Shown here piece by piece: positions 921 through 23,519 of a DNA stretch of 64,000 nt. A program made the position numbers and the translations under genes. This stretch comes from Chthoniobacteraceae bacterium (GTDB taxonomy: Bacteria; Verrucomicrobiota; Verrucomicrobiia; Chthoniobacterales; Chthoniobacteraceae): assembly GCA_031409335.1 (NCBI GenBank), contig JANNWY010000325.1:1-64000 (forward strand), written 5' to 3'. Each line of letters begins with the position of its first letter. The stretch's first letter is position 1. The notes under the pieces are model-generated. The model ran no database searches. It was not told the origin of the DNA and worked only from the letters and a program-made list of their open reading frames with translations.

Positions 921-1151
921 TCAGCGCGGCAATGCCGCCATGTGGAGGTGCAACCGGCGGTCTTTTGCCATGCTGCATGAGAGTAAGACGGCGCTGCCGT
1001 AGCTGAGGCACCGGTAAACGGTGCTCATGGGCTTCTGGTCGGCTGCTGCGACAATGGCGACCTGCCAGACGGGCTGCGCCCTTCCCTTGCGCTTCACGCG
1101 CGCGGTGTGCGGGCCGGTCATTTGAACGATGGCGGATGTTGTGGCGTTCAT
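921..1151 (-). CDS. Small hypothetical protein downstream of ardC
   Basis: ATG at 1151, 4 nt after the ardC stop; 76 aa; followed by a terminator. Confidence 0.5.
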   Translation of the reverse strand: MNATTSAIVQMTGPHTARVKRKGRAQPVWQVAIVAAADQKPMSTVYRCLSYGSAVLLSCSMAKDRRLHLHMAALPR

Positions 1152-1155
1152 CGGT

Positions 1156-2043
1156 TCACGCCTCCGGTTGAGTGTTGAGGATGAAATCCGCGGCCTTCTG
1201 CGCCTGCGACGCGGCACGGATGATCCAGCCTTTGGCATCCTTCGACTTCAAAGCGTCAATCCAGCCCTGCAAATACGCAGCGGAGTTCTCAAGCTCGGCT
1301 TCAATGATTCCCGCGTGAGCGCAAAGGAATGATGCGCCCATTTCGGCGACAAGCTCCTCCTCGGCGTAGGTCTTGCGCGCCTCACCTTCGGCGTCGATGC
1401 CTTTGTTTTCGAGAAGTGACGCACGGGCAAGGCGTGATTGATGGCCTGTCGAGTGTGATAGCTCATGAAAAAGCGTTGAAAAATACGCTTCCTCGCTGGT
1501 GAAAAACCGGCGCTCCGGCATGTGGACGCTATCCGTTGAGGGACGATAGCAGGGAACGGCGCTTCCCTCCCGCATCGCTGGCGCTTTAGGCATACCGGCG
1601 ATGATCTCGCGGGCACGGTTGCAAACGTCACTGGCTGCAAGCTCTGGCGCTGCTTCTGGTTCGGGGAAAGTGATTCCTTCAATCTGCGAAGCGTGAAACA
1701 CGGTGTAACCTTTGAGAAACTTGCGCTTCTCCTCGGCGGATTCGCCACCGGCTGCGCCCTCGGTCTCTTTGGTGTAGGTGCCGTATTTGATGACGAGCGA
1801 ACCCTTCTCGCCTTTCCTAACGTGTCCGCCTAGTTCCTTGGCCTGTAGAAAGGTGAGGAAATAGGGTGATGTGTAGCGAAGGCTACCAAGTAAGAAAACA
1901 TTGATTCCCTGATACCTTTTGCCGGATGAGAAGTTGCGGGGAAAGCCTACCTTTGAAAAGTAAGGTGACTTCCAAGGGCAAACCCCTTGTTCTAGCTGTG
2001 TGATGATGCGTTGTGTTACTTCGGTGTAGATGTCGTAGTTCAT
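1156..2043 (-). CDS. ardC: Antirestriction protein ArdC (ssDNA-binding plus zincin-like domain)
   Basis: Motifs PW, YQGIN, TFLQAKELGGHVRKGEKG, YTVF, HELSH and YAEEELVAEMGA; ATG at 2043 with GGAG upstream. Confidence 0.93.
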   Translation of the reverse strand: MNYDIYTEVTQRIITQLEQGVCPWKSPYFSKVGFPRNFSSGKRYQGINVFLLGSLRYTSPYFLTFLQAKELGGHVRKGEKGSLVIKYGTYTKETEGAAGGESAEEKRKFLKGYTVFHASQIEGITFPEPEAAPELAASDVCNRAREIIAGMPKAPAMREGSAVPCYRPSTDSVHMPERRFFTSEEAYFSTLFHELSHSTGHQSRLARASLLENKGIDAEGEARKTYAEEELVAEMGASFLCAHAGIIEAELENSAAYLQGWIDALKSKDAKGWIIRAASQAQKAADFILNTQPEA

Positions 2044-2291
2044 AAGTGTCTCCAAGTTTTGTGTTTGCAAAAAGCTCTGGGCTTTTGAAAAACATGGTGA
2101 CCAAACGCCGACGGGAATAAGGTGGGGCGTCATAGGGAGGCTCCGACGGAGGGTTCCCGAAAGTCCCGCAATGGACGCAGCGAAGACGCGCCATGAGGAC
2201 AATTTTGGGATACCGTTGGATGCCCTTGACGAACCTCCGCCCGTTGGCATCGAAGCCTACGGAGCGAGGCATGAGCGCAGAGGCGCACCTA

Positions 2292-2784
2292 AGCCGCGCG
2301 AAGACGCGGCTAACTAAATGACACGTAGCACCGCTTCGCGGTGGCCCAGCCGTGGGCAACGGCGGGGGCTAAGCCAACGTGAAGCTGCGCTTGGTGTTCA
2401 AACGGCAGGTAATGGCACGGTCTGGCTTGCCGACGCGTGGAGTTACGGGCGGAAGAGACGGCCAGTCGGTGCCATGCGGTGCGGAGCATCCAAATGGAGT
2501 GGCGGCGGAATGCCTCCGCGACAGCGGCAAGCCTCCCCGAGAAAGCGACGGTCGGCCCTGCCCGCAGCGATCGGACGGAAGCAAGGGAGGACGCATCGCG
2601 AGGACAGGGCCGACGGTCGCAATGTCCGCGCATGAAAAGCGAGTCTGCCGCTTTGAGCAGTCTCGCTTGCGCCTGACTACTCCCGGCAAATGCCGGCGTG
2701 GGGGCGTTGCGGGGAACTCCCCGCTGGAATGGGGAGCGGGAGCCGCTGCGGCTCCCGCGTGGGGAAAGTCTTTTCCCCAGCCTC
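2292..2784 (+). repeat. Structured direct repeat copy 1 (extended, with extra internal hairpins)
   Basis: Head CCGCGCGAAGACGCGG..GACAC; core 2639-2784 GCGAGTCTGCCGCTTTG..GCGTGGGGAAAGTCTTTTCCCC shared with copies 2-4. Confidence 0.9.
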
Positions 2785-2877
2785 TTACTCAACATTGTAT
2801 TCGTTTGCTTCGTTGTGCTCCACTTCGGTAACAATGGTCGAAGCTCTACGACCGCGAGAGGGGACCGTTGGATAGAG

Positions 2878-3345
2878 TTACGCCACCTCTTCATGTGTCT
2901 CAATGAGTCTGCCATCTTGGACGTGCCACTCAAGTACGCGGTGCTGTAATCGACTAAAGCCAATCAGCAAGTCTCCGAGTCGGTTCACGTCCGCGACGTT
3001 CGCCTTTATCGAGAATTCGCTTATCTCTCTGCTTGGGGGCTCCTCGTTATTGTTTAGTCGGATGAGCACAGCGCAATGACCTGTCGAATCGAGCGGCTTC
3101 ACCCTAAAGCTAAGGAAAAAGGCGAAACGGTCTTTCGGCTCTTCGGAGCCGAGTTCGTAAACGACCGCCTCACTGCTGGCCCCTGTGAAATCCACGAGTT
3201 GTTTACCGAGCGTCTTCAAATCGTCGGCGTTGCAGTAGTATTCGAGAGTGCTGTTGACTCGTCCGTTTGATGCCTCGATGTGCAGATTCAGATGGAAGGG
3301 TTCCTCGTAAGGATACCGTGTTATCCTGATGCCTGACGTGTTCAT
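2878..3345 (-). CDS. Hypothetical protein (cargo between repeat copies 1 and 2)
   Basis: 155-aa ORF with globular composition. Confidence 0.75.
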   Translation of the reverse strand: MNTSGIRITRYPYEEPFHLNLHIEASNGRVNSTLEYYCNADDLKTLGKQLVDFTGASSEAVVYELGSEEPKDRFAFFLSFRVKPLDSTGHCAVLIRLNNNEEPPSREISEFSIKANVADVNRLGDLLIGFSRLQHRVLEWHVQDGRLIETHEEVA

Positions 3346-3430
3346 GGTGCGCTAACAATAGTTCAGATAGAATTACCCTGTTACCGCCGTTATATTCTAT
3401 TTACTTCGGAGAGGCAACCGAGTATCGGAG

Positions 3431-3548
3431 GGGCCTGCGCCATGCTGCCCTCGGCGCTTGCGCCGACATCGGGGCGTTACGGGGTGTCCCCGTTAGAATG
3501 GGGAGTGAAAGACGCTGCGGCTTGCGCGTGGGGAAAGTCCTTTCCCCA
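3431..3548 (+). repeat. Structured direct repeat copy 2 (3' part only)
   Basis: GCCCTCGGCGCTTGCGCCGA..GTTACGGGGTGTCCCCGTTAGAATGGGAG..GCGTGGGGAAAGTCCTTTCCCC. Confidence 0.9.
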
Positions 3549-3731
3549 CAAAAAGATGAACTAGAACGTATTTACGAAACATCAAGAAAAGCCACTCGGT
3601 ATTAACTCATTGTTATTTAGGCAAAAAAGCCGTCCGCGTCATCTTGTAATAAAACCTTAACAAAATTAGCGATGACACCGCAACTGTGACGATGCTAAAA
3701 TGAACATTGTTAATTTGAATAGGAATGGCAT

Positions 3732-4358
3732 ATGTCCGATGATTATACGGCAAGAATGGAAAAGGCGATTGCGCAGGCGCGCTCGGCGGTTGCCGAAATA
3801 AACAAGAAGGAGCGAAGCGTTAACGCAACAGCAGCACTGTTGGTAGGCGTGTCAACGGGAGACCCTCTATTCGCCGCAGCACAAATTGCTGCTAGTGAGA
3901 AGCTACCGACGATGTTGGACAGCATAGGCGATAGTGCTCGTAATACCACGTTAGAACGCATGATTGATAGTGCTGGTAAAACCACGTTAGAACGCATGAA
4001 CGATAGTGCTCGTAATGCTAATTCCGGTAGCAACATGATCCTGCCAAGTGGCGTTGTAATGGATGCTGGCACAGCTCCAGCGAATCGGGGTAATAAGCTT
4101 GAGGCTGATCCTCTTAACCTGATTGCTACAGGGCCCGACGAGCGTGTAGAAAAGCAAGCTCCAACAATACCGAGGGATGATATCGACGCAGCAGGCGCGG
4201 CTTTGCGTGCCGCGACAAAAGAAGCGGCTACCTTGCCAAAAGAAGCGACTACCTTAGAGCAAATAGGTAGTAGCATGAAAAATACGAGTTCCTCTATTCT
4301 ACCACCGCCTACGCCTAGCGGTGAGAACAATAGGAACGAGTCCTTCGGAAGACAGTAG
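3732..4358 (+). CDS. Hypothetical low-complexity protein with internal repeats
   Basis: 208-aa ORF with AGGA upstream; tandem DSA(R/G)xTTLERM repeats. Confidence 0.65.
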   Translation: MSDDYTARMEKAIAQARSAVAEINKKERSVNATAALLVGVSTGDPLFAAAQIAASEKLPTMLDSIGDSARNTTLERMIDSAGKTTLERMNDSARNANSGSNMILPSGVVMDAGTAPANRGNKLEADPLNLIATGPDERVEKQAPTIPRDDIDAAGAALRAATKEAATLPKEATTLEQIGSSMKNTSSSILPPPTPSGENNRNESFGRQ

Positions 4359-4371
4359 AAATTGCAGCCCG

Positions 4372-4637
4372 GTCGCGCGAAGACGCGGCCAACATCCACT
4401 GACACGATAAGCGGTTGAATCGGCCAGAGTACAGCGACAGCGAAACGTGCCGTTCAATCGCTTTTGGTGTCCGCCGCCAGCGCGCAGAAAAGCGGGCCTG
4501 CCGCTTTGGGCAGTCTCGCTGTGCGCTGCCCTGCCCTCGGCGAATGCCGACTTCGGGGCGTTACGGGGTATCCCCGTTAGAATGGGGAGCGAGAGACGCT
4601 GCGGCTCCCGCGTGGGGAAAGACTTTTCCCCAGCCTC
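4372..4637 (+). repeat. Structured direct repeat copy 3 (full length)
   Basis: Aligns end to end with copy 4 and with both ends of copy 1. Confidence 0.92.
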
Positions 4638-4646
4638 AAAACCCCG

Positions 4647-4675
4647 TTGACAATGTGTAACCTATACGTTACACT
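4647..4675 (+). promoter_or_regulatory. Sigma70 promoter of the TA operon with overlapping operator
   Basis: TTGACA (4647-4652), 17-nt spacer, TACACT (4670-4675); inverted repeat GTGTAAC-N6-GTTACAC at 4655-4674. Confidence 0.8.
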
Positions 4676-4703
4676 TAGAAATCACTAAAGCTGGAGAATC
4701 ATT

Positions 4704-5039
4704 TTGCTCAAGCCTGGCCACTATGAAGTCCTTGTTTACCACGACCGTTCGGGGGAAAGCCCTTATCTCAAGTGGCTGGACTCGCTGGACTGGAAGACAC
4801 AGGAACGCATTCTCAGTAGGGTGGCGCGAGCGAAACACGGCCAGTTCGGAGATTTCAAGGCGCTCGATACCGGACTCTACGAGATGCGGCTATTTTTTGG
4901 CCCCGGATACCGCGTGTATTTCGGGGAGCACAAAGGACGGGTGATTTTACTTCTAACGGGAGGCGACAAATCCACCCAGCGGAAGGACATCGCGAAAGCG
5001 AAAGAATACTGGAGCATTTATTTGGAGGACAACCGATGA
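4704..5039 (+). CDS. Type II TA toxin, RelE/ParE-like addiction module killer protein (HigB-like order)
   Basis: GESPYLKWLDSL, GQFGDFK, GLYEMRLFFGPGYRVYF, LLLTGGDKSTQRKDIAKAK. Confidence 0.9.
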   Translation: MLKPGHYEVLVYHDRSGESPYLKWLDSLDWKTQERILSRVARAKHGQFGDFKALDTGLYEMRLFFGPGYRVYFGEHKGRVILLLTGGDKSTQRKDIAKAKEYWSIYLEDNR

Positions 5040-5374
5040 AAAAGAACACGAAAAGCACCGGCGTTTCACTCGATGAGATTCGACTCGAACGCCTCAAAGA
5101 TTCCAAGCGCGCCAACTTTGCCACGAAGCTGGCATTGCAGGAATTTGAAAAAGACAACGACGTTGCCGCCCTCCTCGACACGCTGCGCCTCGTCGCCCAA
5201 GCGCAAGGCGGGCTTGCCGGTTTGGCCCGCAAAACCTCAGTGAGCCGCAAGGCGCTGCACGAGGCGCTTTCGTCGGAGGGCAACCCGCGCCTGCGCACGT
5301 TTCAAAGCGTCCTCGATGGCCTCGGCATCCGCATGAGTTTCAAGCCGGTCAACCGGCCAATTCCCGCGCGCTAA
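5036..5374 (+). CDS. Addiction module antidote protein (Xre/HTH)
   Basis: ATGA overlap with toxin; GGLAGLARKTSVSRKALHEALSSEGNPRLRT HTH signature. Confidence 0.9.
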   Translation: MKKNTKSTGVSLDEIRLERLKDSKRANFATKLALQEFEKDNDVAALLDTLRLVAQAQGGLAGLARKTSVSRKALHEALSSEGNPRLRTFQSVLDGLGIRMSFKPVNRPIPAR

Positions 5375-5618
5375 AGCGCGGCAAACTTCCCCGACACGAG
5401 AAGAGCTTGCAACGGCGGAAGCGAAGCGTGCCGTTCAAGCTCTTTTGGTGTCCCGCCATAATCGCGCAGAATACGCGAGTCTGCCGCTTTGGGCAGTCTC
5501 GCGATATGCCAAGCCGCCCTCGGCGCTTGCGCCGACCTCGGGGGCGTTGCGGGGAACTCCCCGCTGGAATGGGTAGCGGGAGACGCTGCGACTGCCGCGT
5601 GGGGAAAGTCTTTTCCCC
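5364..5618 (+). repeat. Structured direct repeat copy 4 (full length, overlaps antitoxin stop)
   Basis: Aligns with copy 3 with compensatory base changes in stems. Confidence 0.92.
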
Positions 5619-5734
5619 GAGGAAATAAGCTGCTAAAAGATTATCTCCATCAGTCTCCTTTTTGGAAAAACGAGGTCACTGAATGAGCGAAAAATCAATT
5701 ACCCACCCGAACGACAAGACGGAATAAGGAAACT

Positions 5735-7375
5735 ATGCACTGGATAGCCTCTACGGAAAAAGACTCCGCGTCGAATGCACTAGAAAAGCGACTTTGGGAT
5801 GCTGCCGACCAGTTTCGGGCAAACTCGGGGCTTAAAGCTCAGGAGTATTCCGCGCCCGTGCTCGGTCTGATTTTTCTGCGCTTTGCCGAAGTTCGCTTTG
5901 CCGCGCAGCGGGCAAAACTTGAAAAATCTTCATCGTCATCTCGTCGCGGTTCGCGCGTTGACGAGTCTGCGGCGTATCACGCCGAAGGGGTGCTTTATCT
6001 ATCGAAAGAGGCGCGCTTTGATTTCCTGCTCACTCTGCCCGAAGGGGCGGATATAGGTGCGAAGGTCAATGAAGCGATGCGCGACATTGAAAAGCACAAT
6101 CCGTCGCTCGCGGGCGTTCTTCCCAAGAGTTACAACCTCTTTACGAGCACGCTGCTTAAGGAACTACTGAAAAAGGTTTCTGAGATTCCTGCGTCGGTGG
6201 ACTACGACGCCTTTGGACGCATCTACGAATACTTTCTCGGCGAGTTCGCCCGCACGGAAGGTCAGAAAGGCGGGGAATTCTACACACCGAGTGGCATTGT
6301 TCGTTTGCTCACGGAAGTCATCGAACCGTATCACGGGCGCATACTGGACCCCGCGTGCGGTTCGGGTGGCATGTTCGTCTCCTCGGCGCGCTTCGTCTCC
6401 GAGCATAAGCAGAATCCCGCCGCGGAACTCTCCATCCACGGCGTCGAGAAAACCGATGAAACCGGACGCCTGTGTCGCCTAAATCTAGCCATCCACGGCC
6501 TCGAAGGCGAAATCAAACACGGCGGCAACATCAACAGCTACTACGACGACCCGCACGACGCCACGGGCCGATTTGACTTCGTCCTCGCCAACCCGCCGTT
6601 CAACGTCAATGCCGTGGACAAGGAGCGGTTGAAGGAAATGGTCGGACAGGGCCGCCGCTTCCCCTTCGGGCTGCCGCGCACCGACAACGCCAATTACCTT
6701 TGGATTCAACTCTTTCACTCCGCGCTCAATGAAAAGGGGAGAGCCGGATTCGTCATGGCGGGCGGCGCGGAAAGCGCCGGTGGGTCAGAAAAGGAAATTC
6801 GGAAACAGCTAATTGAAAGCTGCGCGGTGGATGTAATTGTCGCCGTCGGCCCGAAGATGTTCTACACGGTACCGCTCGGTTGCGTTCTTTGGTTTCTCGA
6901 TCGTGGCAAAAGAAACACACCTCGCGGTGACAAGGTGCTCTTCATTGATGCGAGGCACATCTTTCGGCAAGTGGATCGTGCTCACCGTGAGTGGACACCA
7001 GACCAGCTTCGGCTGCTCGCTGAATTGGTCAGGAACTACCGCGGTGAGAAGCGAAGCGACGATTGGCAACCGCCGTGGGACGAAATCACGCTCCCCGACT
7101 CTTTGAAGGCTGAACTCCGCAGGGCTTTCGTGGCGGGCCGCCACATCGACATTCCCGGACTATGTCGCCAAGTTTCTGTGGTTGAGATTGCGGCGAAGGG
7201 GCATACCCTCCAACCGGGGACATGGGTTGGAGTGACGCCGGGCGAGGCAGTGGATGATGACGACTTCAAGCAACAGCTCGAAACGATGAGCAAGGAACTC
7301 GAAACCCTTAACGCCGAGGCGCGGGACATCGAACAATCCATCGCTAGTAACGTGTTGGAAATTCTGGAGGCTTGA
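5735..7375 (+). CDS. hsdM: Type I R-M methyltransferase subunit
   Basis: GEFYTP, ILDPACGSGGMF and catalytic NPPF motifs. Confidence 0.96.
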   Translation: MHWIASTEKDSASNALEKRLWDAADQFRANSGLKAQEYSAPVLGLIFLRFAEVRFAAQRAKLEKSSSSSRRGSRVDESAAYHAEGVLYLSKEARFDFLLTLPEGADIGAKVNEAMRDIEKHNPSLAGVLPKSYNLFTSTLLKELLKKVSEIPASVDYDAFGRIYEYFLGEFARTEGQKGGEFYTPSGIVRLLTEVIEPYHGRILDPACGSGGMFVSSARFVSEHKQNPAAELSIHGVEKTDETGRLCRLNLAIHGLEGEIKHGGNINSYYDDPHDATGRFDFVLANPPFNVNAVDKERLKEMVGQGRRFPFGLPRTDNANYLWIQLFHSALNEKGRAGFVMAGGAESAGGSEKEIRKQLIESCAVDVIVAVGPKMFYTVPLGCVLWFLDRGKRNTPRGDKVLFIDARHIFRQVDRAHREWTPDQLRLLAELVRNYRGEKRSDDWQPPWDEITLPDSLKAELRRAFVAGRHIDIPGLCRQVSVVEIAAKGHTLQPGTWVGVTPGEAVDDDDFKQQLETMSKELETLNAEARDIEQSIASNVLEILEA

Positions 7376-7377
7376 CG

Positions 7378-8622
7378 ATGGCAACGGCTGAATGGAAACC
7401 CGCCAAGCTAGATGAACTCGGTTTCGTTGGCCGTGGCAAATCGAGGCATCGTCCGCGCAACGCGACGTTTCTCTACGACGGTCCTTATCCTTTCTTCCAG
7501 ACTGGCGACATCAAGGCGGCGAATTTTCATCTGACCGAATACACGCAGACCTACAGCGAAGCAGGACTGGCGCAGAGCAAACTTTGGAAACCGGGAACAC
7601 TTTGCATTACCATTGCCGCGAACATTGCCGAGAATGCAATCCTCGGCATCGAGGGATGTTTCCCCGACAGTGTCGTCGGCTTCGTTGCTGACCCCAACAA
7701 GGCTGATGTCCGCTTCATCAAATACTGCATGGACACGCTCAAGCTTGGGATGCAAGGCGTGTCCCAAGGTGCAGCACAGGACAACCTGAGCGTCGAAAAG
7801 TTGCTGACGTTCGACTTTCGCGTTCCCCCGCTCCAGGTGCAACGGCGAATTGCGGGCACACTGTCGGCTTACGATGAGTTGATGGAGAACAGTCAGCAGC
7901 GCATCCGGCTCTTGGAGGCGATGGCCCGTGCCCTCTACCGCGAGTGGTTCGTTCGCTTCCGCTTCCCAGGCCACGAAAAGTTGCCGCGCATCGCCTCCTC
8001 CCTCGGCGACATCCCCAAAGGCTGGGAGGTAAAGCGGGTGCCCGAATGCGTGGACATCAGCCCGCGTGTCATCGTCCCGCGCGATGGCGAGAAACCGTTT
8101 GTGCCGATGGGCTGCCTCTCGAACGACTCGATGCTCATCACCGACATCGAATCCCGCGCTGGCAACAGCGGCGCGAAATTCCAGAACGGCGACACGCTCT
8201 TTGCTCGCATCACGCCTTGCCTGGAGAACGGCAAGACCGGCTTCGTCCAATTCCTACCCGACGCGCAAGCCGTCGGATTCGGCTCTACCGAGTTTATCGT
8301 CCTGCGCTCTCGCACACTCACACCAGAGTTCGTCTATCTGCTCGCCCGTAGTGATGAGTTTCGCGGCGTCGCCATCAAGAGCATGTCCGGCGCGACCGGA
8401 CGCCAACGAGTGCAGGAGCAATGCTTCGACGATTTCCAGATTGCCCAGCCGCCGCGCACCTTGCTCGACCGCTTCTCCGCCATTGTCGCGCCGAACTTTC
8501 GCCTCATCTACAAGCTGCATCTGCAAATTCAAAACCTCCACCGGACGCGCGACCTGCTGCTGCCGCGTCTGCTGTCGGGGCAGATTTCCCTCACGACCAA
8601 GGAAAACTATGCCAACGCCTGA
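7378..8622 (+). CDS. hsdS: Type I R-M specificity subunit
   Basis: Two TRDs separated by conserved helices (PPLQVQRRIAGTLSAYDEL..; RTRDLLLPRLLSGQI). Confidence 0.93.
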   Translation: MATAEWKPAKLDELGFVGRGKSRHRPRNATFLYDGPYPFFQTGDIKAANFHLTEYTQTYSEAGLAQSKLWKPGTLCITIAANIAENAILGIEGCFPDSVVGFVADPNKADVRFIKYCMDTLKLGMQGVSQGAAQDNLSVEKLLTFDFRVPPLQVQRRIAGTLSAYDELMENSQQRIRLLEAMARALYREWFVRFRFPGHEKLPRIASSLGDIPKGWEVKRVPECVDISPRVIVPRDGEKPFVPMGCLSNDSMLITDIESRAGNSGAKFQNGDTLFARITPCLENGKTGFVQFLPDAQAVGFGSTEFIVLRSRTLTPEFVYLLARSDEFRGVAIKSMSGATGRQRVQEQCFDDFQIAQPPRTLLDRFSAIVAPNFRLIYKLHLQIQNLHRTRDLLLPRLLSGQISLTTKENYANA

Positions 8623-9757
8623 CGACCTTTCACCGCTCAAAGCAAAACCATTTAGCGACGCCGTCGATAAATTTGAGAAGCTGATGACGCAAAGCGGGCG
8701 CGCATTTCTGCTTGGGGCGGGGTGCAGTAAATGCGCTAACCTGCCGCTCACGGCTGAACTAACAAGCAAGGCACTCGCGAGCACAAAACTCGATGAGAGC
8801 ACCAAGGAGATTTTGACTGCAATTCAAGGACATTTTGCCGGCGCAAATGCTCCGAACATCGAAGACTACCTCAGCGAATTGGTTGATCTGCTCGCAATCG
8901 CAGAACGCCGGACGGTTCGAGGCGCTACGAAGAAGGAAATTGAACTGGCTTCCAAGCCTTACGGACCGGATGCCCTGCGGGAAGCCGTGGAGCAAATCAA
9001 GCGGGCGATTGCCGAAGTCATTGACCAACCCGTCTCGATTGAAACGCACTGGGAGTTTGTGAGAGCCGTCCATCGGCCTGTCCGTGATGGCACATCTGGC
9101 AGTAACGAGCGTGTGGATTATCTGGTGCTCAATTATGACACGCTAATTGAAGATGCGTTGGCCTTGGAGAGGGTGCTGTTTGCAGACGGGCTTGACGGTG
9201 GTGTGACAGGCTGGTGGAACGCTCAAACCTTTTCGCAAAAGGGATTGGCAGCCCGCGTCTTAAAACTGCATGGGTCAATCAACTGGTCGGAGTTTCCAAA
9301 TGAAACGCTACCTCGCCGCGTGTCGAAATCACTCAGCGGCACAGCAGTGACGAATCAACGTATCGTGATATGGCCTGCCTCCACCAAGTATCGTGAGACG
9401 CAGCGAGACCCTTACGCCCAACTAGCATCTCTTGCGCGTGAAGTGCTCCGACCGACGGATGGCTCGCAGCGTGTTCTGGCAGTCTGCGGCTATAGGTTTG
9501 GAGACTCTCACATCAACATAGAACTGGATCGCGCTTTGCGAGAATCAGAAGGGCGCCTCACCATCGTGGCGTTCACCTCGGATGAAAGTCTGGAAGGCAC
9601 GCTAAAGGAATGGCACGGGGATTCCGCGGTCCGCGATCAAGTGTTGATTTATGGAAAGCGCGGGTTCTGGCACGGCGACACAGTTGATGCGTCCCCTACA
9701 GACTTGCCGTGGTGGAAATTTGAAAACATCACGCGACTACTTGGAGGTGAACGATGA
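8609..9757 (+). CDS. SIR2-like (sirtuin) domain protein 1
   Basis: FLLGAGCS, LNYD, LKLHGSINW, GYRFGDSHIN; ATG 8609 with AAGGA upstream, overlapping hsdS end. Confidence 0.88.
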   Translation: MPTPDDLSPLKAKPFSDAVDKFEKLMTQSGRAFLLGAGCSKCANLPLTAELTSKALASTKLDESTKEILTAIQGHFAGANAPNIEDYLSELVDLLAIAERRTVRGATKKEIELASKPYGPDALREAVEQIKRAIAEVIDQPVSIETHWEFVRAVHRPVRDGTSGSNERVDYLVLNYDTLIEDALALERVLFADGLDGGVTGWWNAQTFSQKGLAARVLKLHGSINWSEFPNETLPRRVSKSLSGTAVTNQRIVIWPASTKYRETQRDPYAQLASLAREVLRPTDGSQRVLAVCGYRFGDSHINIELDRALRESEGRLTIVAFTSDESLEGTLKEWHGDSAVRDQVLIYGKRGFWHGDTVDASPTDLPWWKFENITRLLGGER

Positions 9758-11463
9758 GCACAGCGCTACGCAATCCGCACGACACAATCGACAATCTCGC
9801 CATCGGTAAAATCATTGAAGTCGACGGGGCACACATCGTTGCCGAGCTAGAGCCGAAGCTATCTGAGCTTTCGCGCGTTTACGCAGGTGAGACTTATCCA
9901 ATTGGCCAGTTCGGATCTATCGTCAAAATCCACTTCGGTCGCCGTCTGATTTTCGCTTTCGTGGGTCGCCTGCGCATGAAGGCGGAGTACGAAGCCGAAC
10001 GGGGAATCACGTCACAAACTTCTGGAGACGAACGGGTCGTCGAAGCTGACTTGTTCGGTGAAGGAGAATGGGTTCTGGATTCGACAGCTACGCCACCGAA
10101 ATGGACGTTGAAGTTTGAACGAGGCGTCGCGACATATCCTCTCCCGCAGCAAACGGTTTATCTGACCCCAAAAGCCGAACTCCGTTTCATCTACGGTCAG
10201 AGCAAAGGAACTGTGGTTCGCCTTGGCGAACATGTTGGTTCTGGCGGGACACCGTGCTACGCAGAAATGAATGAGCTTCTTGGAAAACACACGGCTATCC
10301 TCGGTTCTACAGGCTCAGGAAAATCAGGCACAGTCGCCGCCGTAATCCACAGCCTCTTGGAGAGAGGAGAGAGTGCCGGTTATGGAAAGTGGCAGCCACG
10401 AATCATCATCCTAGACCCACACAACGAATATCCCGCTGCATTCCCCTCTCACAAGAAGCTCTCGACGGACGACGGGAGTTTGTCGCTGCCGTATTGGCTG
10501 CTGAATTTTCAAGAATTGGTGGCGCTTTTAATTGGGAAAACTGAGTTCGTTGCGACTTCGCAGGCAAACATCGTAAAGACAGCCCTGCTGAAAGCGCGGG
10601 AGGAAGGGGCTAAGGCAATCGGTCTTGACCCACAGAAGATAACGGTGGATTCACCAGTCCCTTTTCTGCTGAAAACATTTAGGACTATCGTCGAAACAGG
10701 AAAAGCAGCGTTGACACCGAGCAAGCAAGACTCGCATAACTCTATCTTGGAGAAACTGGACGTGCTCGTTCGTGATGCGCGAGTTTGTTTCCTCATGGCC
10801 GAGTGGACGGGTGGAAACCAAGACCCATTTCCAGCGATTGTAGAGCAGCTTGTTGGCGCTGGACCACAGCCTCGGATTGTCGATTTGTCGGGAGTTCCCA
10901 ACGAAGTCGCGGGTGTCTCAAGCGCTGTCATTGCGCGCACGCTGTTCAATCTAAAGGTCTGGCAGAACGCAGATGAGCGGAGCAAAGACCCTGTTCTGCT
11001 TGTTTGTGAAGAGGCGCATCGGTATGTGCCAAACAGAGGCGAGGCCCAGTATGAAGCAGCCCAAGAAGCAGTGCGGCGCATTGCAAAGGAGGGCCGCAAG
11101 TATGGCATCGGGCTGCTTCTTGTCTCGCAGAGGCCAAGCGAAGTCGAAGCAACCGTCCTTTCGCAGTGCAACAGTTGGATTGTGCTTCGCATCACGAACG
11201 ATGCTGACCGCGATCATGTGCGCTCCATCCTGCCAGACTCAATGGCCGGGCTGACCAAGATGCTGTCGGGATTGCGACGGCAGGAAGCGATTTTTGTCGG
11301 GCAGGCGGCAATGTTGCCTTCGCGCATTCTCGTGAGGACGCTTGCAGTAAATCAGCTTCCGAGGTCGCATGACATTGACTTCGACGACGGTTGGCAAAAC
11401 GACGCAATGACTTCTGAACAACTCAAAACTGTCGCCGAGCGTTGGCGCTACCAACAACGATGA
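9754..11463 (+). CDS. herA: HerA/DUF87-family ATPase (HAS-barrel plus helicase/translocase)
   Basis: Walker A GSTGSGKS, Walker B LLVCEEAHRY, EGRKYG and SQRPSE motifs. Confidence 0.92.
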   Translation: MSTALRNPHDTIDNLAIGKIIEVDGAHIVAELEPKLSELSRVYAGETYPIGQFGSIVKIHFGRRLIFAFVGRLRMKAEYEAERGITSQTSGDERVVEADLFGEGEWVLDSTATPPKWTLKFERGVATYPLPQQTVYLTPKAELRFIYGQSKGTVVRLGEHVGSGGTPCYAEMNELLGKHTAILGSTGSGKSGTVAAVIHSLLERGESAGYGKWQPRIIILDPHNEYPAAFPSHKKLSTDDGSLSLPYWLLNFQELVALLIGKTEFVATSQANIVKTALLKAREEGAKAIGLDPQKITVDSPVPFLLKTFRTIVETGKAALTPSKQDSHNSILEKLDVLVRDARVCFLMAEWTGGNQDPFPAIVEQLVGAGPQPRIVDLSGVPNEVAGVSSAVIARTLFNLKVWQNADERSKDPVLLVCEEAHRYVPNRGEAQYEAAQEAVRRIAKEGRKYGIGLLLVSQRPSEVEATVLSQCNSWIVLRITNDADRDHVRSILPDSMAGLTKMLSGLRRQEAIFVGQAAMLPSRILVRTLAVNQLPRSHDIDFDDGWQNDAMTSEQLKTVAERWRYQQR

Positions 11464-12785
11464 GCACTAACCTACTAATTCTAGGAGCGGGGGTAGATCG
11501 CACCAAAGGCATCGGATTTCCGATGGCAAACACCTTGCTTCCCGAGGTAGCGCAATATCTAGCCAGTGAAGGTAAGGCAGTTGACGAAGCATTGCGAAAA
11601 GCTCTTCCAGGACTTCGCTTTTCCTTCGGACGATTGATTGGCGGTGCGATTGACGCGCTGACTACTCGCGAGGTCGGAGAGCTTAGATCAGTTATACAAA
11701 GAGTACAGCAAGTTGCCGACGACATCGAGGACGAACACGACATAGTTAAAAAGCAGGGGCTTTTAATTGTTCGCCTCTTCGACAAACTTGTCGCGATTGC
11801 CAGTGAGAATCAACTTGATGACGAAACCTGTCAGTTAATTAGGGATGTCTTTGGTAAAGACGCGGACGAGATGGTGGACAATGATTCCATTGTTGACCTG
11901 CACAAGCTGTCATTGTCCGACACTTTCAAAAGCATTCTCAAGCGGACCCTACACCAGAGCTTGACGGGAAAATCTAATGCCGTGGCTGAGGCGTTGGGAA
12001 TGGACATGCTCAACATCGAACAATTGCTCATCGAAAAATTTCTCGGCTTCTACAACAACAAGAGCAGCGAGATTAAAAACTACATCTACATTTCGTGGTG
12101 TCTGTGGGCGTTTCTAGTGCACAGACAGAAGGAAGTTTTTGCTGCGTATCCAGAGCGAAATATTCCGTTTTACAGTGAAATCCCTAAAGGGACGAACGCA
12201 ATAACGTTGAACTATACTTCCTTTTTAGAGGAACATCTCGGGCGCGCTCACACGGTTCTCTTTCATGGAGGGCTATCCGAATATGTGCGGATGGATACTC
12301 GAGACTTAGTTGAAATCGAAAACATTTTGGACTGTGACCCTGCGAAATTCATCGAGACAGACATTGCTCCGAACATCTCTGTGACCGATGACAATTGGGA
12401 AAATCAAAAGCATGTCATACCGGCGTTAGTTCCGCCGCTGCGCTTAAAGCCAATCTTATCCCATAAGTATATTGAACTGTGGCACAAGGCATCCCAATGG
12501 GTTCACAACGCGAAGAAAATCATTGTAATCGGATATTCATTCAACAATGCGGATGAGCACTTTAACGACATACTGCGCGTCAACAAGGATAAGAAATTCG
12601 ATATAGTAGGTCCCCATGTTCACAGTAAGGTTTTTCTCAGACGTATTGAAAAGGTGCTAGGGATTCCGACGGGCAATTATGTTTCGTGTCATGTTCAGGG
12701 AAAAGGTTGTAAGAAAGCCGGAAACGTCCGTTTAATCGAAGCAAACGCCGACGGGTTAAATCTAATCCAACTGTTTGGAGAGTAG
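11460..12785 (+). CDS. SIR2-like domain protein 2 (divergent)
   Basis: LILGAGVD, TLNYT, LFHGG, IGYSFNNADEHFN; ATGA overlap with herA. Confidence 0.78.
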   Translation: MSTNLLILGAGVDRTKGIGFPMANTLLPEVAQYLASEGKAVDEALRKALPGLRFSFGRLIGGAIDALTTREVGELRSVIQRVQQVADDIEDEHDIVKKQGLLIVRLFDKLVAIASENQLDDETCQLIRDVFGKDADEMVDNDSIVDLHKLSLSDTFKSILKRTLHQSLTGKSNAVAEALGMDMLNIEQLLIEKFLGFYNNKSSEIKNYIYISWCLWAFLVHRQKEVFAAYPERNIPFYSEIPKGTNAITLNYTSFLEEHLGRAHTVLFHGGLSEYVRMDTRDLVEIENILDCDPAKFIETDIAPNISVTDDNWENQKHVIPALVPPLRLKPILSHKYIELWHKASQWVHNAKKIIVIGYSFNNADEHFNDILRVNKDKKFDIVGPHVHSKVFLRRIEKVLGIPTGNYVSCHVQGKGCKKAGNVRLIEANADGLNLIQLFGE

Positions 12786-12788
12786 TCT

Positions 12789-15700
12789 ATGCCTAGCGCC
12801 TACAACGAAGACCAGCTTGTGGAACAACCCGCCATTGGGTTGTTTGCGGAGCTTGGTTGGACCACGGTATCGGCACGGGAGGAGATTTTTGGCACCGCAA
12901 GCACGCTAGGGCGCGAGACAAGTGGTGAGGTCGTGCTGCTTCCACGCTTGCGGGCTGCTATGAAAGTTCTGAATCCAGCGCTTCCTCCCGAAGCAATTAC
13001 TTCTGCATTGGACGAGTTGACTCGCGATCGTTCAGCTATGAGCGCAGAGGCGGCAAACCGCGAAGTTTATTTAATTCTTAAAGAAGGCATTAAAGTATCG
13101 CTGGCAGACCGAGAGCATGGGGGGCAAAAGACTGAGCGATTGAGAGTTGTTGACTGGGAGAATCCGGCGAACAACGACTTTTTGCTCGTAAGTCAATTCA
13201 GTGTCACGGGCGCGCTCTATACGTGTCGTCCAGACTTGGTTGGATTCGTGAACGGCCTTCCGCTCGTGGTGATTGAGCTAAAAAAGCCTGGGGTTCCCGC
13301 GCGCGCGGCTTTTGATGAGAATCTGAAACACTACAAGGACCAGATTCCCGCATTGTTCTGGTATAATGCGCTCCTTATCGCGTCGAACGGCACGGATAGC
13401 CGCGTCGGTTCGCTTACGGCGGATTGGGAGCGGTTTTTCGAGTGGAAGCGTATTGAGCGTGAGGATGAGCCGCGCCGTGTATCGCTGGAAGTGATGATTC
13501 GCGGCACCTGCGACAAGGGACGGATGCTAGACGTTGTAGAGAATTTCACGCTTTTCTCCGAACACAAAGCGGGGCTGGTCAAAATTATTGGGCAGAACCA
13601 CCAATTTCTTGGTGTCAACAATGCCATTGCCTCGATGCTCGAAGCACGGAAAATGGGTCATGGTCGCGGCGGTGTATTCTGGCAAACGCAAGGTAGTGGC
13701 AAAAGTTTTTCAATGGTGTTCTTCGCGCAAAAGGTGCTGCGCAAAGTGGCTGGAAACTGGACATTCGTGGTAGTGACAGACCGTGTGGAATTGGATGGTC
13801 AAATTGCGACGACGTTCAAGGCGTCGGGAGCCGTGAGCGACGCGGAAGGAGATGAGTGCCACGCGACAAGCGGGGCACATCTGCGCGAATTGCTACGCGG
13901 CAATCATCGCTACGTCTTTACCCTCATTCATAAGTTTCAGACACCAGAGCTGCTGTGTGATCGGTCTGACGTTATTGTGCTTAATGACGAAGCGCATCGT
14001 AGCCAATACGACACGTTGGCGCTCAACATGCGTGCGGCGTTGCCGAAAGCGCTGTTTCTTGCGTTTACCGGCACGCCTCTGATTTCCGGTGAGGAACGGA
14101 CGAAGGACGTGTTCGGGGATTATGTTTCCATTTACGATTTCCAGCAATCCGTCGAAGACGGCGCAACGGTGCCGCTCTTTTATGAGAACCGGACACCGGA
14201 GTTGCAGTTAATAAACCCAGACCTTAATGAACAGATTTACGACCTCATAGAGGCGACGGAACTTGATCCGGAACAAGAGGCGCGGCTCGAACGGGAATTG
14301 AGTCGTCAATACCACATCATCACGCGCGATGATCGGTTAGAAACGGTGGCGAAAGACATTGTACGACATTTTCTTGGGCGGGGGTTCGTGGGCAAGGCAA
14401 TGGTGGTTTCAATCGACAAGGCGACCGCGCTCAAGATGTACGACAAGGTGAAGAAATATTGGGATGTCGAACGAAAACTGGGCGAAAACGAACTGGAACG
14501 TCTTTTGAAGGTCAAGGAACCGACTCCGGCGGTTCTGGATGCGGTTCAGGAATTAAAGAAACGACTGGATGTTCTCAAGACAACCGACATGGCGGTGATT
14601 GTTTCGCCTGGTCAGAACGAGATTCCGCTAATGAGGAAGCTGGGTCTCGACATCGGAGTTCACCGCAGGCGAATGAATGATGAGGCGCTTGATGAGAAGT
14701 TTAAGGATACGACAGACCCGCTGCGACTCGTCTTTGTCTGTGCTATGTGGCTCACCGGCTTTGATGCACCAAGCTGCTCGACGGTTTATCTCGACAAGCC
14801 GATGCGCAATCACACGCTGATGCAGACAATTGCGCGAGCGAACCGTGTCTTCCCTGGCAAGCACAGTGGCGTGATTGTGGACTACGCCAACGTGTTTGCT
14901 TCACTTGAAAAGGCGCTTGCGATTTATGGGGCGGGCAAAGACGGAAAGAATCCCGTTAAGGACAAAGCGAAGCTCGTGGAGGAATTGGGAAAAGCAGTAG
15001 AGAACGCGACGGCATTTTGCGATAAGCAGGGAGTTGACCTTAGCTCTATTGAGCAACTCAACGCTGGTGGCATGGACCGCTTGCAAAAGATTGACGACGC
15101 GGTCAACGCACTCATTTCACCGGACCCATTGCGCCGCGAGTTTCTCGGACACGAGCGTTTAGTGAGCACACTTTTCACCGCAGTGAAGCCGGACACGGCG
15201 GCATTGGAATTCGCGGGACGCACTGCATGTCTGGGCGCAATCGCTGCTGCCATTCGTACGAAGTTAAATCCCAATCCCGTGGACATTAGTGAGGTGATGG
15301 GAAAAGTGGGGGAATTGCTTGATGCTTCCATTACCGGCGTTGAGATGCCCGAGAAACCGGCACCGGTCATGGACCTGTCGAAAATTGATTTTGTGGCGTT
15401 GCGCAAGCGATTCAAGGAATCGAAGCACAAAAACACCGACTTGGAAGTTCTCAAGGCTGCCATTAAGGCACAGTTGGAAAAACTGATTCGCTTCAATAAG
15501 ACTCGTGCGGATTTCGCTGAGAAATTTGAAGAGTTGATCGAAAGCTACAATGCGGGCAGCAGAAATATTGAGGAACTCTTTGAAGAGCTGTTCAAACTGA
15601 GTGGCAGCTTATCCAATGAGCAACAGCGGCACTTGCGCGAAAACATGACGGAAGAGGAATTAGTAATACTCGATATTCTGACACGCCCTGCACCGGAACT

Positions 15701-15959
15701 GAGCACAGAAGAACGGGCAGAGGTGAAGAAAGTCGCTCGTGAACTTCTACACCGCTTGAAAGAACTGCTTGTTCTCAATTGGCGGCAAAAAGCCACAGCG
15801 CGTTCGCAACTTAAACTCACGATAGAGGACATGCTCGACACCGGTTTGCCCCGCGCTTACGAAAAGCCGCTTTACGAGCAAAAGTGTTCTGCCCTGTTTG
15901 AGCACATTTACGAATCCTACCCTGAGCGTGACGTAAGCGTGTATTCGGCAGTTATTTGA
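12789..15959 (+). CDS. hsdR: Type I R-M restriction subunit
   Basis: PD..IELK nuclease motif, QTQGSGKS, DEAH, FTGTP, MWLTGFD, QTIARANR. Confidence 0.96.
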   Translation: MPSAYNEDQLVEQPAIGLFAELGWTTVSAREEIFGTASTLGRETSGEVVLLPRLRAAMKVLNPALPPEAITSALDELTRDRSAMSAEAANREVYLILKEGIKVSLADREHGGQKTERLRVVDWENPANNDFLLVSQFSVTGALYTCRPDLVGFVNGLPLVVIELKKPGVPARAAFDENLKHYKDQIPALFWYNALLIASNGTDSRVGSLTADWERFFEWKRIEREDEPRRVSLEVMIRGTCDKGRMLDVVENFTLFSEHKAGLVKIIGQNHQFLGVNNAIASMLEARKMGHGRGGVFWQTQGSGKSFSMVFFAQKVLRKVAGNWTFVVVTDRVELDGQIATTFKASGAVSDAEGDECHATSGAHLRELLRGNHRYVFTLIHKFQTPELLCDRSDVIVLNDEAHRSQYDTLALNMRAALPKALFLAFTGTPLISGEERTKDVFGDYVSIYDFQQSVEDGATVPLFYENRTPELQLINPDLNEQIYDLIEATELDPEQEARLERELSRQYHIITRDDRLETVAKDIVRHFLGRGFVGKAMVVSIDKATALKMYDKVKKYWDVERKLGENELERLLKVKEPTPAVLDAVQELKKRLDVLKTTDMAVIVSPGQNEIPLMRKLGLDIGVHRRRMNDEALDEKFKDTTDPLRLVFVCAMWLTGFDAPSCSTVYLDKPMRNHTLMQTIARANRVFPGKHSGVIVDYANVFASLEKALAIYGAGKDGKNPVKDKAKLVEELGKAVENATAFCDKQGVDLSSIEQLNAGGMDRLQKIDDAVNALISPDPLRREFLGHERLVSTLFTAVKPDTAALEFAGRTACLGAIAAAIRTKLNPNPVDISEVMGKVGELLDASITGVEMPEKPAPVMDLSKIDFVALRKRFKESKHKNTDLEVLKAAIKAQLEKLIRFNKTRADFAEKFEELIESYNAGSRNIEELFEELFKLSGSLSNEQQRHLRENMTEEELVILDILTRPAPELSTEERAEVKKVARELLHRLKELLVLNWRQKATARSQLKLTIEDMLDTGLPRAYEKPLYEQKCSALFEHIYESYPERDVSVYSAVI

Positions 15960-17663: not shown

Positions 17664-19133
17664 TCAACTTTGGTTGAAGGTTATCAGTCTGTAGGGAAGG
17701 GATTCTTCGCCATTGGGAAAAAGATGGCCGCCCATGTAAACGAGGGCTTCGACTTGAAAATTGTGCATCGGTCCACCGCGCTTTAGCGTGGTAAAGAACG
17801 ATGGCTCCACGAAGAGCCGCCGTTGTTCACTTCGGCTTACGCCTGAAGTGTGGCTCCCGTTTGCCGGACGGGTTCCGTCGGTTTGGGACTGCCCGATATT
17901 GGTGCTGGTGATTTTCAGCCAGCGTTCGCCCAAAAGTTTGGAGGCCCATTCGTTGGTCTCGCCGCTGCCTTGGCAGAAGAACTTTGTCTGCAAATTCCCG
18001 AGCAGGGAATCAACCGCGTCTGCGTTGCCCAAAACGCGCCGGTAGCTCTCCCTGTTTTGCGTCAGATACACCGTGCATCCGGCGGCGGATCGCGCGACGG
18101 CCTGATATTCCGCGTCAAACTTGGTCACAAAGTTTTGCGCCTCGTCGGCCCACAGGAAAACGGGTCGCAGGTGTTTGTTGCGCTTTATCGGCGGCGTGCG
18201 CCTGAGCACGGCGACTTGGAAGCAGAATTTCCACGCCAGATTGGCGATGCGTCCGGCGAGCCGATATTCTTGAACGGGCAAATCAACGATGATGATTTTC
18301 CCGTCGAACGTGTCCTCTGGCTTGATGTTGGTGTCCGTGGAAAAGATCGTTCGCAGTGGCCGCGTGATGAGCGGACGCGCCAGCATCGAGAATGATAAAT
18401 TGATAATGCTGCGGGTCTTTTCCGAAAGGAGCGGATACTCCTTCATCCAGTAGTTGCGGCACTCTTCAAAATCGGCGCGAACTTCTGGCCTGCCGTTTAT
18501 CGTGGCGTTGTCCGCCTCGCGGACGACCGCTGCGCAAGTGCTGGTTTCCTGCCACTGCGGATCGTCGATCTGCTCAAGATTGTGGGGCGCTGTGTTCACG
18601 ATCGAACGCATCAGCGGCAACGAAACTTGCAGTCCAGCGAAGATGGGCAAATCCACCAGATTGGTGTTCATGTGATGCAGGGCGTCTTCCCAAAACTTGT
18701 TGTCTCCACTGCCGCCATCGGATGATCCGCCTGAACTTGCGATAGCTCCGGCGATTTCATCGAGGATGGCGACAATGTTGATCGTCAGCCCTCCTCCTGC
18801 CTCCGGCCTCGACGCCTCCCAATCGAGGAAATTGAACCGCCATTTTCCTTCGCCGTCGATGATGACGAGATCTTTGTGTCGGCCTGTTTCTTTTGCCCAC
18901 TGCTCCCACTGGCGGCGTTCTTCTTTCTTGGCGCACAAGACTAACCCGCCGCATCCGGCGGCAAGGTAGCCGTATGCTAAATTCTTTGCGGGTCCGCTGG
19001 TCTTACCGCTGCCGGTAGCACCAAAAACACACACGCCTGCTTTTGCGTCCTCGATGCGGAAGGCGTGCCCATTTCCCCAGTCACGTAACTTGGTTTGCGG
19101 ATCGAATTCATGCGTGCGTTTAAGGCTCCACAT
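17664..19133 (-). CDS. Type IV coupling protein-like ATPase (TraD/VirD4/TraG family)
   Basis: Walker A GATGSGKT, FLWADEAQNF, YLTQN, LGNLQTKFF; start uncertain. Confidence 0.85.
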   Translation of the reverse strand: MWSLKRTHEFDPQTKLRDWGNGHAFRIEDAKAGVCVFGATGSGKTSGPAKNLAYGYLAAGCGGLVLCAKKEERRQWEQWAKETGRHKDLVIIDGEGKWRFNFLDWEASRPEAGGGLTINIVAILDEIAGAIASSGGSSDGGSGDNKFWEDALHHMNTNLVDLPIFAGLQVSLPLMRSIVNTAPHNLEQIDDPQWQETSTCAAVVREADNATINGRPEVRADFEECRNYWMKEYPLLSEKTRSIINLSFSMLARPLITRPLRTIFSTDTNIKPEDTFDGKIIIVDLPVQEYRLAGRIANLAWKFCFQVAVLRRTPPIKRNKHLRPVFLWADEAQNFVTKFDAEYQAVARSAAGCTVYLTQNRESYRRVLGNADAVDSLLGNLQTKFFCQGSGETNEWASKLLGERWLKITSTNIGQSQTDGTRPANGSHTSGVSRSEQRRLFVEPSFFTTLKRGGPMHNFQVEALVYMGGHLFPNGEESLPYRLITFNQS

Positions 19134-19246
19134 GGGAAGTGGACAACCGCACGGAGCGTGCCACGCACCGGCAAACTTTGCCGGTTGAGCCGCGGTGACT
19201 GCTGCTGGCGGCAAATTTGGACTGGCATTTTCTGCCTGGAAAAAGC

Positions 19247-19473: not shown

Positions 19474-19690
19474 CGAGGTATGTTGCGGCTGCAACATATA
19501 ACCTCGCCATTCCTCCTCTCGCCTGTCGGCTCGCTCCGCAACGGGCTGTGGTGCTCGCTGGCGCTCGCGGCATGTTGTTGTGGGACCGCGCACGGTCATC
19601 AAGAAGGCCCACGGCAGAATGGGCCAACGTGGGAGTAGCAAAAAAGAATCGTGTTTATGCGGATCGCCCGCTGATAGAGGAGCACGACGA

Positions 19691-23255: not shown

Positions 23256-23519
23256 TGGGGGTAGATTTGGGGGTCTGCCCATTTCTAACAATGACGATTG
23301 TTTATCTTTTACAGATAGTTAGCTTATCATTGTGAATCCTATCTCCCCGACCATTTCATTAGCCGGACATGTCCGGCAACATCCTCCAAAGCAAGACTCG
23401 AAGCCATTCACAAGACGATAGTCGGTCGCTTGCGTCCGGTAGCCAATCGTTGACATTCGGGGGTAAATGGGGGTAGAATAATAACAGTTTACCCCCAACT
23501 GCTTATGGAGTTACCCCCA
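23256..23519 (+). other. attP-like site: tRNA-Pro 3' core flanked by arm-type repeats
   Basis: Core GAATCCTATCTCCCCGACCA at 23334-23353; GGGGGTA-type repeats at 23256-23276 and 23458-23476, inverted copies at 23489-23497 and 23511-23519. Confidence 0.75.

Follow-up and report, generated by a model that had tools for sequence, protein, structure and literature searches.

A covarying three-hairpin repeat core in a Chthoniobacteraceae mobilisable element, most likely a single-stranded DNA signal of establishment regions

Introduction

The locus described here raises the question of what a structured DNA repeat does when it recurs between unrelated genes of a mobile element. The stretch analysed, hereafter the window, comprises 64,000 nucleotides from a Chthoniobacteraceae bacterium (GCA_031409335.1, contig JANNWY010000325.1, positions 1 to 64,000). 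Between 2292 and 5618 it holds four repeats, all in the same orientation on the + strand, next to the anti-restriction gene ardC. A first-pass annotation had read them as a conserved RNA or single-stranded DNA (ssDNA) structure that might be a leading-region element, an undescribed noncoding RNA or a scaffold for capturing defence cargo. We found that the conserved part of all four repeats is a 3'-terminal core of 75-78 nt with three hairpins. This motif is conserved, covarying, strand-asymmetric and fixed in orientation to ardC, ardA, DUF932 and radC genes, and we read it as most likely an ssDNA signal that belongs to the establishment regions of mobile elements. The core probably folds on the transferred strand; that it acts there as a single-strand initiation (priming) signal is the explanation we favour, tentatively.

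Results and Discussion

Repeats of the window

Every stem quoted in the first-pass annotation was found in the sequence, and the four same-orientation repeats were recovered with the placement it described: copy 3 begins 13 nt past the stop codon at 4358, and the antitoxin stop (5372-5374) sits inside the first loop of copy 4. The alternation of + strand repeats with cargo also held, with the amendments that the first cargo open reading frame (ORF; 2878-3345) is on the - strand and that copy 2 is 5'-truncated by blastn. The parts of the repeats are listed below, with covariance model (CM) scores for the cores.

2292..2700, + strand: 5' extension of copy 1, variable and with multiple hairpins, within an approximately 740-nt ardC leader (folding, homologous leaders)
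2701..2778, + strand: core copy 1, composed of a GGGGCGTT leader, hairpin H1, a purine linker, hairpin H2 and hairpin H3 (CM 78.5 bits, alignment, pair counts)
3471..3547, + strand: core copy 2, its 5' extension reduced to about 40 nt from 3431 (CM 75.4 bits, blastn)
4372..4554, + strand: 5' extension of copy 3 (blastn, folding)
4555..4631, + strand: core copy 3, with AGCCTC directly 3' as in copy 1 (CM 78.3 bits)
5364..5540, + strand: 5' extension of copy 4, overlapping the antitoxin stop (folding)
5541..5618, + strand: core copy 4 (CM 78.9 bits)

Pairwise, the window cores share 64-74 identical positions of 77-78, and blastn alignment of copy 1 to copies 3 and 4 is limited to the last approximately 160 nt of copy 1. 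The hairpins upstream differ by lineage while the core is kept. Folding z-scores for the + strand, computed against 40 dinucleotide shuffles with RNA/DNA parameters, were -5.6/-6.0 for copy 1, -4.5/-5.3 for copy 3 and -5.5/-5.8 for copy 4, and weak for copy 2 (-0.7/-2.6).

With 150 of approximately 3600 candidates scored by the CM, the 7.9-Mb host genome yielded no strong copies beyond these four; two weaker copies lie on other islands, and blastn was concordant. A genome-wide repetitive extragenic palindrome (REP) was therefore rejected for this host. In two divergent host-genome copies (L505:6596-6676 and L506:8420-8506) the 5' extension is duplicated; a DUF932 gene lies close to one of them, and two integrases together with an ABC-3C defence system lie close to the other.

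Structure and covariation of the core

When 76 cores were aligned, 86.2% of cells were paired compared to 78.2% in shuffles and 38-67% in slid controls. Compensatory, double-sided changes were observed at 11 of the 19 pairs, including pairs of H1 (GC52/AU23 and GC63/AU10) and H3 (GC31/AU27 and AU48/GC23). These pair counts bear out the covarying structure that had been predicted. H1 and H3 are paired almost always, whereas H2 is variable in length and aligns poorly (61%). Some of the conservation of the core was imposed by the search pattern itself; variants found by the CM still keep the G-tracts. The unpaired bases GGGC-TT and GAA-GGG are near-invariant, which suggests specific recognition more than a mere barrier.

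The loops differ between the strands. C-GNA-G triloops occur in 76 of 182 distinct cores on the + strand versus 3 on the - strand, and all four middle bases are seen; a chance match in coding DNA (L052) was excluded before loops were counted. Mini-hairpins of this type are described as far more stable in DNA than in RNA, and they occur at the G4 priming origin and at the RepB' ssiA (PMC13037366).

Orientation to establishment genes

Establishment genes lay on the strand opposite to the motif in all 76 gene-locus pairs from 240 loci (144 longer than 2 kb), 64 of them on the motif's 5' side, after 20 duplicate or own loci had been removed. The 76 genes encode ArdC (22), DUF932 (21), RadC (9), ArdA (8), DUF6876 (7), amidoligase (4), GATase (4) and DUF3560 (1) proteins. 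Across phyla, the core is placed 0.1-1 kb from the starts of ardC, ardA or DUF932 genes. Leading-region anti-defence genes have been described as lying on the strand that allows them to be read from the entering ssDNA (bioRxiv 2023.02.15.528439). The proposal of a leading-region element beside ardC is thus supported by the fixed orientation to genes of this type. Core-bearing IMG/VR contigs (L035, L036, L038 and L039) have the same geometry upstream of amidoligase/glutamine-amidotransferase operons, although dsDNA phage have no obvious single-stranded stage on entry.

Seven annotated plasmid records outside Campylobacter had a full CM match. Three show the geometry with ardC or DUF932, and a Magnetospira record has ssb and parA opposite to the motif, farther away; of the remaining three, two carry no such gene and one is unannotated. 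The three with this geometry, found by DNA similarity alone, are Ketogulonicigenium pYP1, a Sphingobium plasmid and Granulicella pACIX903, in which the ardC operon also encodes SSB and a RepB-type primase.

A relaxase gene co-oriented with ardC is the usual layout when the template strand is the transferred one. In pYP1 and pACIX903 a relaxase-type gene is co-oriented with ardC, so the motif strand is expected to be transferred. The window's own MobA gene is co-oriented with the motif and, by the usual layout, the other strand would be transferred. A candidate origin of transfer (oriT) nevertheless tentatively makes the motif strand the transferred one, its predicted nick (nic) site being on the + strand.

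19477..19514, + strand: candidate MOBQ oriT, an inverted repeat followed by TAACCTCG/CCATTCCT at 19499, with the nick predicted after 19506

This site is invariant in the related element of genome G129 (described below), and no other site of its kind in the island has an inverted repeat. It is identical at 13 of 16 nt to its counterpart upstream of the most similar plasmid-borne mobQ gene. It resembles the RSF1010 nic (PMC4814116). The candidate came from conservation, as the canonical MOBQ nic pattern was uninformative (61 matches with up to 3 mismatches versus 88 expected). Further oriT homologues in 251 genomes amounted to short, weak matches, and none were found in viral contigs. The candidate nic lies on the coding strand of the relaxase, inverted relative to the two related plasmids that showed the pattern, and its core is TAACCTCG instead of TAAGTGCG. 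Adjoining it at 19245-19470 is an AAGGG...CCCTT palindrome run with a GGGGTCTAGGGGG hairpin, 84% conserved in G129.

Distribution and chromosomal copies

Searches at the blastn level detected the repeat in 12 of 150 further genomes from the family and in 8 of a sample of 400 from the phylum; a few of these matches are short and possibly due to chance. A degenerate pattern covering the first 33 nt matched at least 126 genome stretches, at least 127 metagenome stretches and 5 viral stretches. The second half of the core, left unspecified, still followed the pattern in 124 distinct full cores; 22 matches in which H3 was not detectable by regular expression were set aside from the full-core set. 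Among metagenome loci, 113 of 124 scored at least 25 bits. The core was seen in Verrucomicrobiota, Proteobacteria, Nitrospinota, Acidobacteriota, Spirochaetota and Fibrobacterota, with named records from Verrucomicrobiota, Treponema, Fibrobacter, Gamma- and Alphaproteobacteria, Nitrospina, Scalindua and Acidobacteriota. The Campylobacter plasmid pVir (L198:12005-12033) carries the leader and H1 half alone in two places, one of them beside a toprim gene. A literature search that included literal motif strings, with subscription papers mostly outside its coverage, returned no description of the core, which is apparently undescribed so far. When the window was scanned with Rfam, only tRNA reached its gathering score, and 600-5800 gave chance-level matches.

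Copy numbers are high in Treponema and Fibrobacter of the rumen. With 150 candidates scored by the CM in each genome, there were at least 55 and 44 copies in two Treponema drafts, at least 22 in a Fibrobacter draft, at least 59 and 15 in two complete Treponema-genus chromosomes (G621 and G659, respectively) and at least 17-27 in each of five Fibrobacter-genus genomes. A partial pattern was present in 47 of 50 Fibrobacter-genus genomes. The first-pass annotation had named a match to a known MITE (a miniature inverted-repeat transposable element) or a genome-wide REP as evidence against its reading. No known REP or MITE was matched among those tested and the repeat is not a REP in the host, but in these rumen bacteria the core is a dispersed chromosomal repeat.

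In G621, 23 copies were sense and 21 antisense to tandem genes, 10 lay between convergent genes and 5 between divergent genes; the lack of a sense/antisense bias argues for a DNA-level element. Depending on the choice of terminus, 38-42 of the 59 copies were on the lagging-strand template (p 0.04-0.002). The copies cluster, with 8 pairs within 3 kb versus 2.9 expected, and the 15 genes between close copies were metabolic or toxin-antitoxin genes with no transposase among them. One orthologous intergenic site (L290-L319) had the motif in 4 of 30 genomes, once reversed, and other repeats or nothing in the rest; no target duplication was visible at this single site. It holds at least 5 unrelated small repeats in different Treponema species, making it a hot spot, and is flanked by what we take to be paaK and a gene for an ACT protein.

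Element setting and recombination between copies

The repeats of the window reside in an integrative mobilisable element that contains ardC, a toxin-antitoxin pair, a type I restriction-modification (R-M) system with SIR2/HerA, a coupling protein, a MOBQ relaxase, an AlpA-like gene and a tyrosine integrase.

1156..2043, - strand: ardC anti-restriction gene (Pfam PF08401 and PF18818), whose template is the folding strand of the core
2107..2248, + strand: long imperfect hairpin beside the ardC start, kept in ardC leaders of homologues and absent from copies 2-4
2785..4637, no strand assigned: repeat-bounded segment with a 155-aa ORF (- strand), copy 2, a 208-aa ORF and copy 3; missing from the G129 sister element
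4704..5374, + strand: Gp49/HigB-like toxin and HI1420-type antitoxin, with a promoter-like site at 4647-4675; also in G129
5735..15959, + strand: type I R-M system with inserted SIR2 and HerA genes, defence cargo; different cargo here in G129
17664..19214, - strand: TraD/TrwB-like coupling protein
20610..21521, + strand: MobA/MobL (MOBQ) relaxase (Pfam PF03389)
22346-22555: AlpA-like gene
23519..24703, + strand: tyrosine integrase with a P4-like domain set

Copy 1 forms the distal end of the non-coding ardC leader. Sigma-70-like sites precede the cargo after copies 2 and 3 (3672-3701 and 4647-4675). The sister element in G129 has the same backbone and spans 25.6 kb between 35-bp direct repeats at a tRNA gene. 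It contains two repeat copies, the same toxin-antitoxin pair and other defence cargo (TIR/SLOG and another type I system). By blastn it lacks window 2785-4637, and in the junction alignment the junction falls at the end of the core; its first copy is copy-1-like up to the core and copy-3-like just past it. The two G129 copies are nearly identical, so the crossover point is not pinned down. G129 thus differs by a repeat-bounded segment and by its cargo, which indicates that cargo changes between repeats, and related islands do vary in cargo while the repeats persist, as the first-pass annotation had anticipated.

From these alignments, recombination between copies likely rearranges the cargo. 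Such recombination has been proposed for the CUP repeats of IncN plasmids (PMC5371602), and, as proposed there, RecA-type recombination over approximately 160 nt at 82-85% identity would suffice. Same-strain contigs from four sequencing runs contained no exact excision joint, and the other joints listed are likely from relatives.

Comparison with known systems

In layout, the closest analogue of the window leaders is EGeRS1 of the pLS20-family plasmids, a GC-rich multi-hairpin repeated leader of 400-750 bp upstream of ardC and other establishment genes whose mechanism is unknown (PMC8708921). The window leaders likewise are GC-rich multi-inverted-repeat leaders upstream of establishment genes. 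EGeRS1 differs, however, in scoring 12-15 bits with the CM, lacking H1 and giving no blastn match, so that identity above 60% was not found; in addition, the transferred strand of pLS20 is the non-template strand, unlike our reading of the core. All five EGeRS1 copies of pLS20 (L569:4303-14206) carry GGGGCGTT, the opening octamer of the core, on the template strand of the genes, but the copies are near-identical, and the octamer therefore counts as one observation that may be due to chance.

Frpo/ssi1-3 and the class 2-3 ssDNA promoters of F, ColIb-P9 and pESBL are also template-strand hairpins upstream of leading-region genes, and they have been proposed to transcribe and prime (PMC12672017; bioRxiv 2023.02.15.528439). 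Frpo/ssi is a single long stem that rebuilds -35 and -10 boxes, whereas the core has three short hairpins without paired boxes; TTGACA at 5 or more of 6 positions was present in just 9 of 182 cores on the + strand. A better Frpo analogue than the core is the hairpin at 2107-2248, a separate candidate ssDNA promoter. It folds better on the + than on the - strand, with z just -1.3. It is conserved in many Verrucomicrobial ardC leaders, with TTGAC/TTTAC in the 3' arm and no clear -10 box.

The G4 complementary-strand origin and RSF1010 ssiA, compared here by description, are priming sites at which short hairpins cluster on ssDNA, among them GNA/GNNA mini-hairpins (PMC13037366); the core differs in having no conserved CTG. 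CUP repeats resemble the core as repeated elements ahead of anti-restriction operons, but hold a dsDNA promoter and an ArdK site (PMC5371602). Neither the CM nor blastn found a core member in F 45-70 kb, R46 20-50 kb (the CUP comparison) or pLS20 40-66 kb.

A priming signal and its alternatives

In the explanation we favour, the core, which lies on the template strand of the establishment genes, likely folds while the transferred element is single-stranded. The folded core would be read by a conserved host or element enzyme, starting second-strand synthesis, and extension of the primers made there would run back across the hairpin leader into ardC and through it. We infer the identity of the transferred strand, folding in vivo and priming alike. 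The array would be secondary: incoming DNA with its own copy probably recombines with a resident copy, so that cargo accumulates between repeats in direct orientation. The motif has also spread through the chromosomes of rumen Treponema and Fibrobacter as a dispersed repeat. Beyond enterobacterial plasmids, the conversion of transferred single strands to duplex DNA is largely open, and the motif, short and fixed in strand and position across phyla, offers a testable candidate. It could also flag the transferred strand and the establishment region in elements without a known oriT, and it connects a signal carried by mobile elements with a chromosomal repeat of rumen bacteria that has so far lacked an explanation.

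Several observations weigh against priming on the transferred strand. In the four window copies the + strand lacks a GNA loop, and the two strands fold about equally well. Strand bias was absent for GNNA loops (13 on + versus 16 on - among 182 cores) and for GCGNNAGC upstream (21 versus 15 of 122), and the CTG primase site is not conserved (74 of 182 cores on +). The marker families behind the 76 of 76 orientation count were picked from the same loci for their recurrence, and the genomes include relatives that do not count as independent. The relaxase gene points the same way as the motif in pVir and in six TrwC elements; no nic site was found for the TrwC elements, and an alignment of four of their upstream regions yielded none. 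In G129, ardC would enter approximately 10-11 kb into the 25.6-kb element and not first. Priming next to an ssDNA promoter would cut ardC expression short, and chromosomal spread is not explained by priming. The lagging-strand bias was present in one of three complete chromosomes, with 7 of 15 copies in G659 and 9 of 18 in G747, the latter counted by manual reading of GC skew (an automated half-genome split gave 10).

The core could instead act as a roadblock or insulator, stalling second-strand synthesis or read-through transcription at the far edge of the leader and thereby prolonging or tightening ardC expression from the proximal hairpin. It would be the first structure met by a polymerase arriving from the 3' side, F ssp2 works as a replication roadblock (bioRxiv 10.64898/2026.01.09.698686), and EGeRS1-B stops read-through in one orientation (PMC8708921). 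We consider this unlikely in view of the short stems, of copies 2-4, which lack an establishment gene to their rear, and of the invariant unpaired bases, which suggest specific recognition. A structured RNA, either a small RNA (sRNA) or a leader, is very improbable. One argument for it is Clostridiales-2 (RF02937), probably a distant relative of the core judging from their shared order of a G-tract, a GGGG/CCCC hairpin, a purine linker ending in GGGTGC, a second hairpin and GGGAA. Full-length RF02937 matches fall exactly on five copies, but at 21-25 bits (best 24.8) against a gathering score of 58.6, with none in the window copies or G000, and the model, filed as an sRNA, has no H3 stem. The higher frequency of G-U-type pairs on the + strand (412 versus 84) also speaks for an RNA, but it follows from that strand being G-rich. 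The folding strand is antisense to ardC, and screens of this kind return ssDNA motifs too, as noted by Weinberg in 2017 (PMC5737381). Since GNA loops with any middle base are a DNA feature and there is no sense bias to genes (23 versus 21), ssDNA is favoured over RNA, which also makes the noncoding RNA of the first-pass annotation unlikely. The comparison would suggest a DNA-level role for the orphan motif Clostridiales-2.

Copy numbers of 15-59 per rumen genome, the partial pattern throughout nearly all Fibrobacter-genus genomes and the orthologous site occupied in 4 of 30 genomes could all be accounted for by a non-autonomous REP- or MITE-like repeat moved as ssDNA by an HUH enzyme, which would collect on transferred strands by inserting into single-stranded DNA. 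Like GTAG-tagged REPs, the core is dispersed in intergenic regions as palindromes near stop codons in both orientations, with high copy number in Treponema and Fibrobacter, and 46 of 182 cores have a GTRG tag ahead of H2. The core has three hairpins, however, and neither a terminal GTAG/CGTC tag nor a RAYT flanked by the repeat was found; the main text of PMC3733652 names neither Treponema nor Fibrobacter. No Y1 transposase was detected in four high-copy genomes, one of them complete, and 1 of 50 Y1 loci has a copy, 1.2 kb off; a RAYT/IS200 link was not found. Compared to a MITE, the core has GGGG/CCCC ends of 4-5 nt at most and showed no duplication at the site examined. Random insertion would not fix the core at its distance from ardC, ardA and DUF932 starts, and we hold this account to be doubtful. 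As for a dedicated site-specific recombination site that captures defence cargo, the copies of all multi-copy mobile loci seen are directly repeated with unrelated cargo between them, the segment by which G129 differs is bounded by repeats, and H1 may hold a bulged T. Integron attC sites have paired RYYYAAC and GTTRRRY core sites in one imperfect hairpin, whereas no repeat copy has both on one strand. The cassettes of attC arrays are mostly promoterless and co-oriented; here the first cargo is on the - strand and promoter-like sites are present at 3672 and 4647. No integrase is consistently adjacent, and that of the window lies 18 kb from the array with P4-like domains (by a general domain scan with no IntI-specific model). 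Most loci have a single copy, and RecA-type recombination would suffice. The attC-like cassette of the first-pass annotation accordingly finds little room, and a dedicated site is highly unlikely. A bolder combination is a long shot: one 75-nt ssDNA fold, recognised by an enzyme shared by at least 8 phyla, would prime second-strand synthesis on incoming elements and also be the joint for capturing cargo circles with the same fold, and in rumen Treponema and Fibrobacter it would have turned into a mobile repeat in its own right; if true, this priming-plus-capture fold would be a new cassette and mini-element system without an integron integrase or RAYT.

Other features of the element

Between hsdS and hsdR, the region 8609-12785 contains a SIR2-like gene, HerA and an unannotated 447-aa gene, an insert that likely represents a Sir2-HerA defence system. 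A palindromic stretch at 790-935, downstream of the ardC operon, folds strongly (z approximately -3) and is conserved in G129. The contig starts, at 1-120, in what is probably an insertion sequence, which nine of the genome's contigs have at their ends, and the left end of the element is therefore outside the view. A fragment resembling a tRNA 3' end (23325-23353) has no second match in the assembly. An att-like end is present at 26750-26785; its G129 counterpart abuts a tRNA, and the element of the window seems to occupy another site than that of G129.

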